From Dictyostelium discoideum (taxonomy: Eukaryota): DNA of 64,000 nucleotides. Numbering within the stretch: position 1 is the stretch's first letter; the number at the start of each line of letters is the position of its first letter. The stretch is from assembly GCA_000004695.1 (NCBI GenBank), contig CM000151.3, positions 8,224,001 to 8,288,000 of the forward strand, written 5' to 3'. A program made the translations under genes and the position numbers. The notes beneath the pieces were generated by a model. It did no database searches. It was not told the DNA's origin and saw only the letters and a list, made by a program, of their open reading frames with translations. This document shows, piece after piece, positions 14,001 through 14,765 of the stretch.

Positions 14001-14765
14001 AATACATTTCCAATTTTCTCTGAGGAAGAAAAGAAACATTCACAATATTTAGAATGTAAATTCATCCTTGAAAATCATTTTGAAAAAGTAAAGAATATTT
14101 CAAAATTAAAATTAGAATGGCGTGAAAGAAGAGATTTACAATTCCCATTGGTTTTATTAAATGCTTTTGTTTTTTTCCTTTGTAATCAATTCAATATCTC
14201 AACATATAATAAATTCATTCAAAATGAAGATTTAGAAATTAGAAAACAAGCAATTAAAGAAACAATTAAAACATTAATGGGGGTGCACGATGAAGATGAA
14301 AATGAAACATATAATTTAAATGAGAATTTTGTATCGGTAATAAAAGAAGAAAATCATAAAGTTTTACTCATTAAATCAATTATTGAGCAATCAGATACTC
14401 AACTATACTTTAAATCAGCTTTGGATCAAGTTTTATTGGAAATAATAAAGAAAAGAAAAACTGATGAAATTAATTCTCCATTGATTGAATATTGTGGAAA
14501 TTCATTCTCACAAGCTTTTTTTAATGGTGATATTAAAACTTGTAATCTCATTCTCAAATACTATCCAAATCAATTTAAAATCAATAAAGATTCAATCACT
14601 GAAGCTTTACAATTGCAAAATATTCATATTATTAAATATTATTACAAAGTTGAAAATTGTAAAAATTTAATTAATAATTTTAAAAATGATAATAATTTAT
14701 TAAAACATTTAAAAAATGAATTATCAAAACATCCAATTTATAAATATCATTTAACTTGGTTATAA
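11037..14765 (+). CDS. Tandem-family paralog B (1242 aa)
   Basis: Continuous ORF from ATG 11037 'MTEKTEILFWKVFKNKFIFNEIFNKVHNN' to '...KHPIYKYHLTWL*'. Collinear with the other paralogs. It has a T-rich tract 'PPPTTTTTATVKAKETTTT'. Confidence 0.7.
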   Translation: MTEKTEILFWKVFKNKFIFNEIFNKVHNNQWIEYDEPNKYNVYNRCKFKYTHSLQIMIKNDLLPLIKDKIKHGDHIEIDRNSIKYLFSKLSKTPPVQLYSQIEITIFSININNNNNNKNKYKDEDYLEIIELLMKHRRDEFEITDLIKMAVITNSPDVIRLLVNEPYSVIIHPTIFEFAIIKSNLATIKELINLESINFKNYGIKLINEEFKRKSLSLAAHRETLKTTITEYIFNNPSLYSIPPPLSLINNQKDDEEGIKYEYIEFEEFIGLKSSSLLKSLMEFDIVKGKFKKNTVNSFLKMYHPYERLKVNIQIILKYGTPSLDTKEIKEILDKIDNIDEKDSNHLYKLQELAALQFPNQKNFCFYYSKKYGRNDESKEQVNVGIQEQLDTYSDWEIENEVEEEEEENVNKQREYFNNFNKFRKATVYNLSERYSSVTSIYLNTMKEGDIDTMKKLDKIKIYDGASGPVFRLDVSRFHYFQLPKEKEVLMKVWDYLNEHSFKQIGNNYEILMEFFSSVTDIISPLDLKISNLEDFMMARLSLMLFNSLTKNNLNVFQLLLNSFDKFNFLNGVVVEMNKLLNKEKILFGSDGKIIQLDNKYINQLIKSIEMAVEKYNKFISEPIENGVESFSIILNHLYDQLIRIKGISVDQLDYIRSIIPQQLLAFKWDVYRIFFYLNIRSRKLTKYILSRPRVSLFTEGNRNHSPLYNVYTSEGSYTLDLRKYLKLDLFTYDYILGRENTSSSGSGGAYENNNNNNNKKFINQFDTILKELIKQLSLDICTDVSNIDEILDGEDFFMVSFNKDLKYSLDIGRKDLFWELLDWIQQYMIKNENLMRYQVYQFNSPYESLLPTSTIFSKVKIIELPPPTTTTTATVKAKETTTTIGSRILKIDNFENPITNESSVKIGWNENKLIEPFKPMSKLINSFKFQREVIRSICRVMNVNEIQRFIQHNFFVSNFHILIYSCAVYNNRDDIMSFLLNNYNIKFNTFPIFSEEEKKHSQYLECKFILENHFEKVKNISKLKLEWRERRDLQFPLVLLNAFVFFLCNQFNISTYNKFIQNEDLEIRKQAIKETIKTLMGVHDEDENETYNLNENFVSVIKEENHKVLLIKSIIEQSDTQLYFKSALDQVLLEIIKKRKTDEINSPLIEYCGNSFSQAFFNGDIKTCNLILKYYPNQFKINKDSITEALQLQNIHIIKYYYKVENCKNLINNFKNDNNLLKHLKNELSKHPIYKYHLTWL

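Follow-up and report, generated by a model that had tools for sequence, protein, structure and literature searches.

Concerted evolution and purifying selection at the near-identical 3' ends of a tandem gene array in Dictyostelium discoideum

In a 64,000-nucleotide (nt) stretch of Dictyostelium discoideum DNA (hereafter the window, to which all positions refer), a tandem array of otherwise divergent paralogous genes carries an almost identical terminal block of about 130 nt at the 3' end of the coding sequence. We found that the genealogy of this block is decoupled from that of the genes and tracks genome membership, which amounts to concerted evolution, and that purifying selection on the encoded C-terminal tail is one cause of the identity. 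It is likely that selection on the peptide and repeated short-tract gene conversion between loci jointly keep the block near-identical. Concerted evolution is what the evidence establishes, and conversion is the mechanism that we infer from it.

The array occupies positions 1-38,000 on a single strand and comprises six intact paralogs (A-F, ~1250-1415 codons) and two pseudogenes (psi0 and G). Gene A is 100% identical to DDB_G0277585 of AX4 and gene B equals DDB_G0277653 except for one annotated intron; the window therefore represents AX4 chromosome 2. Its G+C content is ~20%, with long runs of A and of T. The genes and their terminal blocks, all on the + strand, are as follows.

psi0, 157-2674 (+): pseudogene; block at 2544-2674 (+), 97% identical to that of gene B.
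Gene A, 4651-8523 (+): intact, DDB_G0277585; block at 8393-8523 (+), the exact run shared with gene D spanning 8389-8538, 15 nt past the stop codon.
Gene B, 11037-14765 (+): intact, DDB_G0277653; block at 14635-14765 (+), the last 43 codons and the stop codon, encoding a peptide that ends in YYYKVENCKNLINNFKNDNNLLKHLKNELSKHPIYKYHLTWL.
Gene C, 15430-19617 (+): intact; block at 19487-19617 (+), 5 changes from the family consensus, including NE->KL, which also occurs in copy Y4 of another genome (below).
Gene G, 19828-23145 (+): pseudogene, with a decayed tail described among the spacer copies below.
Gene D, 23429-27616 (+): intact; block at 27486-27616 (+), identical to gene A over 27482-27631 (150 nt).
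Gene E, 28136-32299 (+): intact; block at 32169-32299 (+), located by BLAST, 2 changes from the consensus.
Gene F, 33035-37279 (+): intact; block at 37149-37279 (+), located by BLAST, 3 changes from the consensus.

The terminal block, its encoded tail and its synonymous sites

A preliminary description, made from the sequence alone, had reported a near-identical 3' end in seven copies with 0-4 substitutions among them. A BLAST search with the 131-nt block of gene B recovered these seven copies at 96.2-100% identity, and a 39-mer from the gene end occurred seven times at ≤2 mismatches, against 0 expected. The range of substitutions held for six copies: psi0, like B and E, differs from the family consensus at 2 positions, A and D at none and F at 3, while C carries 5. 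The upstream coding sequence is divergent, as had been stated, with ~78% nucleotide and 61-66% amino-acid identity between clades (~22% difference in DNA, ~38% in protein); the younger pairs B/C and D/E are 91% and 97.6% identical. In the multiple alignment, identity jumps ~135 nt before the stop codon and is lost within 5-16 nt after it. The exact runs shared by A and D (150 nt; 8389-8538 and 27482-27631), A and B (121 nt) and B and D (121 nt) reach 10-15 nt into the 3' untranslated region (UTR), and in most cross-clade pairs the longest exact run within the ~4-kb genes falls in the terminal block. We rejected an assembly artefact as the source of the identity, since the block is shorter than a sequencing read, has divergent sequence around it and turns up again in three independent assemblies.

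The block encodes the C-terminal tail IIKYYY...YKYHLTWL-COOH. Relatives from the D. discoideum complex and D. dimigraforme that are 25-37% identical in the C-terminal region keep the pattern IHIIKYYY...L..EL..H..YK..L.WL-COOH, and all invariant alignment columns fall within the C-terminal ~90 residues. AlphaFold2 models the last 340 residues as all-alpha, with a mean predicted local distance difference test score (pLDDT) of 80.8 that exceeds 90 over the tail; a Foldseek search of this model against the PDB returned no significant neighbour (best E-value 0.18, generic helical repeats). Among seventeen block copies from four genomes, the variants fall into 18 nonsynonymous and 13 synonymous types, from which we obtain a ratio of nonsynonymous to synonymous substitution rates (dN/dS, or omega) of ~0.26. 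Across estimates, the block has a dN/dS of ~0.26-0.37, compared with ~0.8 gene-wide (0.67-0.88 between clades), a value so high that the family evolves almost neutrally at the protein level. The retention of the tail motif in distant relatives and the low omega of the block thus identify purifying selection on the C-terminal helical tail as one cause of the identity. Much of that identity is ordinary purifying selection, a factor that the preliminary description had not weighed.

Could such selection suffice, with peptide constraint and A/T-biased codon usage preserving the block and no exchange between paralogs? The deep conservation of the motif at the protein level and the low omega fit this explanation, as does the K-, N-, Y- and L-rich composition of the block, whose codons have low synonymous turnover gene-wide. 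The number of changes per copy relative to the consensus (0-9, mean ~4) is likewise only mildly overdispersed. The synonymous sites, however, argue against it. Across 25 segments of 45 codons, synonymous divergence (pS) ranged from 0.05 to 0.54 and nonsynonymous divergence (pN) from 0.018 to 0.42, and the last segment was the lowest in both and the most conserved overall (nucleotide identity 0.97, pS 0.048, pN 0.018). Block pS of 0.048 compares with ~0.25 elsewhere in the gene. From segment to segment, synonymous divergence was strongly heterogeneous (chi2 = 95, df 24, p = 2e-10), excluding uniform divergence in the sliding comparison, and pS was correlated with pN (Spearman 0.91, p = 3e-10). 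In the last segment, 11 synonymous and 45 nonsynonymous substitutions would be expected, and we counted 2 (P = 0.0012) and 4, respectively.

This deficit survived an expectation matched to amino-acid composition, which predicts 4-6 synonymous codon differences per cross-clade pair, ~4-5-fold more than the 0-2 observed. Synonymous change in the block is thus ~5-fold below expectation, and the earlier statement that identity extends to synonymous sites stands. Two further observations are difficult to reconcile with selection alone: identity among A, B and D continues 10-15 nt beyond the stop codon, and paralogs at other loci tolerate ~50% change in the same peptide. Together with the cross-genome pattern described below, which selection alone cannot produce, they lead us to regard it as a rather unlikely full explanation.

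Low pS was also found at alignment columns 87-254, 1105-1212 and 1418-1465. The 3' end is therefore the extreme of a gene-wide synonymous mosaic and no unique island.

Block and gene genealogies across four genomes

We compared the window with homologous array segments from three other genomes, taken as 24-kb slices.

L001, D. cf. discoideum: copies Y1-Y4.
L002, a divergent D. discoideum strain: copies R1 and R2.
L003, an assembly encoding a protein identical to AX4 DDB_G0277643: copies T1-T4.

We considered L003 as a direct contiguous extension of the window and rejected this, as the two do not overlap. The upstream sequence resolves into three old clades common to the genomes, with 77-82% identity between clades.

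Clade I: A, psi0, T1-4, R1-2 and Y1-3.
Clade II: B, C and Y4.
Clade III: D, E and F.

In the block this clade structure is gone: A and D are 100% and A and B 99% identical across clades, while the clade mates B and Y4 share 93% and C and Y4 95%. Block and upstream distances are uncorrelated (rho 0.10). Synonymous codon differences in the block average 0.019 between copies of different clades in the same genome and 0.038 between copies of the same clade in different genomes; upstream the order is reversed, at 0.104 and 0.059. Accordingly, Mantel-type label permutation found the upstream sequence to be clade-structured (p ≤ 0.001) and not genome-structured, and the block to be genome-structured (p = 0.009-0.029 for synonymous sites, 0.018-0.048 for all sites) and not clade-structured. 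This result was stable when the T copies were pooled with AX4, separated or dropped, and when C and E were left out. Among 22 segments of the 13 full-length genes, only the last had a cross-clade distance within genomes (0.035) below the same-clade distance between genomes (0.045).

Individual variants follow the same pattern. Two synonymous variants, TGC (Y2 and Y4) and CCT (Y3 and Y4), are common to copies of different clades in the D. cf. discoideum genome alone, F and T3 have two variants in common that lie 96 nt apart, and the block of T1 matches R2 and not its clade mate R1. Selection on the peptide alone cannot yield genome-sorted distances, nor can it give copies of different clades in one genome the same synonymous variants. 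Over their last 400 nt, D and E are 91% identical to A, against 79% further upstream, which we read as an older, weaker version of the block homogenisation.

As a GENECONV-like test we applied a run-length permutation test over polymorphic sites to 51 pairs. A and D agreed at 23 polymorphic sites in a row, a run that extends over exactly the block (p < 0.001). Further conversion-like fragments elsewhere in the genes were short (~40-110 nt) and scattered. The pairwise homoplasy index (PHI) test for recombination was significant across 13 copies (p < 0.002). The homogenisation proposed in the preliminary description is thus present at the 3' end and not confined there, given the other low-pS blocks and the fragments found elsewhere. 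Its reading of gene conversion or concerted evolution agrees with the ~5-fold synonymous deficit, the genome-sorted block distances and the A-D fragment.

The 5' part of the genes shows a related picture. Over columns ~87-256 (within the first ~250 codons) clade structure is nearly gone, with pS of 0.06-0.14, and the cross-clade distance within a genome is about equal to the same-clade distance between genomes. Y2 and Y4 share a significant cross-clade fragment within their genome at alignment nt 124-236 (31 polymorphic sites), which suggests gene conversion at the 5' end too.

Several points weigh against joint action of selection and conversion at the 3' end. The synonymous signal comes from few events: the block has ~21 synonymous sites, and the 13 intact copies show 8 synonymous variants. 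Significance in the Mantel tests is modest (p = 0.01-0.05), and the choice of the block among ~25 segments was made post hoc. L003 is called AX4-like solely from its DDB_G0277643-identical protein and has no overlap with the window, although the result holds without it. Homogenisation is incomplete: C and its clade mate Y4 from another genome retain the common NE->KL variant, and the four D. cf. discoideum block copies differ from one another by 5-7%. Both block limits are also limits of protein conservation (a variable loop upstream, the stop codon downstream), as selection alone would predict. Finally, on the six window genes alone neither PHI (p = 0.27) nor four-taxon site-pattern heterogeneity was significant, so that the window by itself cannot prove pairwise conversion and the cross-genome comparison is needed.

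The limits of the tract bear on the agent of exchange. The tract is bounded on both sides, starting ~135 nt before the stop codon and ending 10-16 nt after it, and its flanks were not co-transferred. Outside the recently duplicated D/E units, downstream spacers become unalignable within ~16 nt of the stop codon. Because both ends lie within ~150 nt, short-tract ectopic conversion is the favoured agent. Genes A, B and D agree over the first 10-16 nt of their 3' UTRs and then pass into wholly different spacers, which indicates short patches instead of unequal crossovers.

Unequal crossing-over or recent duplication could in principle have spread one 3' end as chimeric genes, and the array is in flux: D/E is a duplication at 97.6% identity, pseudogenes are frequent, and copy number and content differ between genomes. 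Remnants of gene ends in the spacers (below) record past rearrangement near the gene end, and, as noted, D and E come closer to A in their last 400 nt than they do upstream. In such an event, however, the donor's downstream spacer should travel along with the gene end, which the unalignable spacers disfavour, and identity also stops sharply ~135 nt upstream of the stop codon. We consider this origin extremely unlikely.

Under joint selection and conversion, selection would probably preserve enough similarity in the block to provide a recombination substrate, and break repair copied from a neighbouring paralog would also wipe out synonymous and clade-specific differences. Heteroduplex would probably terminate upstream in the hypervariable loop-coding stretch (ITEALKLENI, variable family-wide) and downstream in the A/T-run spacers ~10-16 nt past the stop codon.

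Gene-end copies in the spacers and a proposed nucleic-acid element

The preliminary description had also pointed to partial copies of the block in the spacers. These are present: the 19-mer TCATTTAACTTGGTTATAA has 11 matches at ≤3 mismatches, against 0.27 expected, four of them in spacers (8568, 22981, 23127 and 27779), and a weaker copy of ~105 nt lies between E and F.

Copy in the 3' UTR of A, 8566-8586 (+): a perfect 21-nt second gene end (ATCATTTAACTTGGTTATAAAA), 63 nt downstream of the first.
G-D spacer fossil, 22972-22999 (+): ATGAAAATCATTTAACTTTGTTATAT, homologous to the D-E spacer fossil.
G tail remnant, 23081-23145 (+): decayed, ~85% identical to the live block.
D-E spacer fossil, 27692-27797 (+): 68% identical over 110 nt, the last 19 nt with 1 mismatch.
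E-F fossil, 32308-32412 (+): ~105 nt, ~80% identical, beginning 9 nt after the stop codon of E.

Four of these copies (22981, 23127, 27779 and 32308-32412) carry the derived change AAAATCATTT for AATATCATTT, and the G tail and the E-F copy also carry CAAAATAATCA for CAAAACATCCA. Because of these shared changes, the four go back to a single old and diverged terminal block that spread together with the repeat unit; the G-D and D-E fossil spacers are homologous because the D/E unit was duplicated. The divergence of the fossils from the live block (13-32%) resembles the gene-wide divergence between clades, and the old fossil could thus be a 3' end from before homogenisation or the remnant of a duplication junction. 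The copy at 8566-8586 is a separate, recent tandem duplication of ~63 nt across the stop codon of A (8504-8630).

We therefore rejected the spacer copies as independent recurrent breakpoints, given the derived changes and flanking spacer homology common to four of them. The earlier proposal that the element is a recurrent duplication breakpoint is at best weakly supported, the A copy being the only separate recent event. No fossils of the gene end were found in the three other loci. The G tail remnant shows what becomes of the block without selection or conversion.

The two pseudogenes are otherwise heavily rearranged. psi0 is A-like, with large internal deletions, stop codons and frame disruptions, and contains an inverted segment (1081-1198) that corresponds to A positions 1905-2025 reversed. 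G has lost its first ~110 nt, and A-rich, spacer-like sequence with the gene-end fossil has taken the place of most of its last ~300 nt.

A functional RNA or DNA element in the 3' coding end had been offered as an alternative. Such an element could govern mRNA localisation or stability, be targeted by small RNAs, act as an antisense promoter or signal 3'-end processing. Conservation of synonymous sites and of ~10-15 nt of 3' UTR would fit such an element; moreover, 16 of 17 copies from the four genomes have exactly the same last 19 nt, and the terminal 19-mer is the best-kept part of the spacer fossils. The fossils are, however, copies of one another, so that their conservation is not independent. 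Folding of the block on either strand was no better than that of shuffled sequence (z = 0.13 and 0.51), an Rfam scan of window positions 1-40000 gave no matches, and no antisense open reading frame (ORF) was found. The near-absence of variation in the block leaves no covariation to assess. In the window and the other loci, the 19-mer occurs only at the ends of family genes and in their fossils, and constraint on a nucleic-acid element cannot account for genome-structured variation. The folding scores and the Rfam scan leave this proposal unsupported, and we give it hardly any credence.

The gene family, known systems and implications

The genes belong to an unnamed, uncharacterised family found only in Dictyostelium that evolves rapidly and has a conserved C-terminal motif. 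Against Pfam, the array proteins produced only sub-threshold matches (Ank_3, E = 0.14; PAS_13, 17 bits against a cut-off of 27), and the sole mention found in the literature is a weak I-TASSER analogy in an analogue list. A word-index search for C-terminal homologs, which yielded only two fragments, was superseded by an exhaustive HMMER search that identified 24 relatives; those examined all come from the D. discoideum species complex or D. dimigraforme. The N-terminal ~250 and C-terminal ~90 residues are conserved around a fast-evolving middle (35-60% amino-acid identity, dN/dS ~0.8, or ~0.7-0.9 between clades).

Two AX4 gene models may have annotation problems. The model of DDB_G0277585 begins at an internal Met, 55 codons after an in-frame N-terminus conserved in the family (MEILEILFWKVF; window 4651-4815), and that of DDB_G0277653 removes 45 in-frame nt (SININNNNNNKNKYK), including the KYKD residues kept in all paralogs.

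At the array edge in two of the other genomes, a distant, divergently oriented family member adjoins a cofilin-domain gene (L001 1057-5050 (-); L002 1319-5218 (-)). It retains ...THIINH(Y/F)LNIENCNNLNNNF... without the YKYHLTWL tail, and the L001 copy has in-frame stop codons near its end. Beyond the array, window positions 38000-64000 contain other ORFs, some on the minus strand, with G+C ranging from 13% to 28% and no copy of the terminal block. The spacer upstream of D (23260-23385) holds a degenerate run of CAC(T)n repeats and long T tracts, and long poly(A) tracts follow several genes (e.g., 14848-14880); these are probably ordinary intergenic low complexity of Dictyostelium.

Textbook cases of interlocus gene conversion include the primate gamma-globin pair and the opsin, growth-hormone and amylase clusters. 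As in those, a discrete tract on the order of 100 nt is homogenised here including its synonymous sites, is more alike within a genome than among clade mates of other genomes (the putative orthologs), and has flanks that retain the duplication history. Unlike them, the array tract lies at the end of the coding sequence on a selected peptide, so that selection and conversion are entangled; the family is uncharacterised, and homogenisation is incomplete and crosses three old clades. The block likewise resembles selected C-terminal peptide motifs, as IIKYYY...YKxxLxWL-COOH is the best-conserved segment of the family and is confidently modelled as helices, but selection alone does not explain its synonymous, genome-structured pattern.

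Conserved ends around a variable core are also known from the 3' ends of Trypanosoma brucei VSG genes and the conserved ends of Plasmodium var and rif genes. By analogy only, the array combines a conserved 5' part of ~250 codons and a conserved 3' block with a fast-evolving middle, and there is recombination signal among its copies. In contrast to those systems, the array shows no sign of programmed switching, of an expression site or of cassette transfer, and its conversion-like fragments are short and scattered, with no exchange of whole cores. We think it very unlikely that the array is a diversity-generating cassette system, in which the 3' block and the equally clade-less 5' codons would act as recombination handles shuffling the centre, or that the block is a shared nucleic-acid target co-regulating all copies. 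If the cassette reading were true, the diversity might serve self/non-self recognition or interactions with prey and pathogens in this social amoeba.

Concerted evolution is a known process, found here in a new, unstudied, Dictyostelium-specific family, and no new biological principle is involved. The array illustrates, cleanly and in compact form, how the end of a coding sequence may be shaped by purifying selection and short-tract gene conversion that strengthen one another, and would document ectopic conversion in a genome as A/T-rich as that of Dictyostelium. For this family, phylogenetic trees and orthology calls must not rest on the 3' or 5' ends of the genes.

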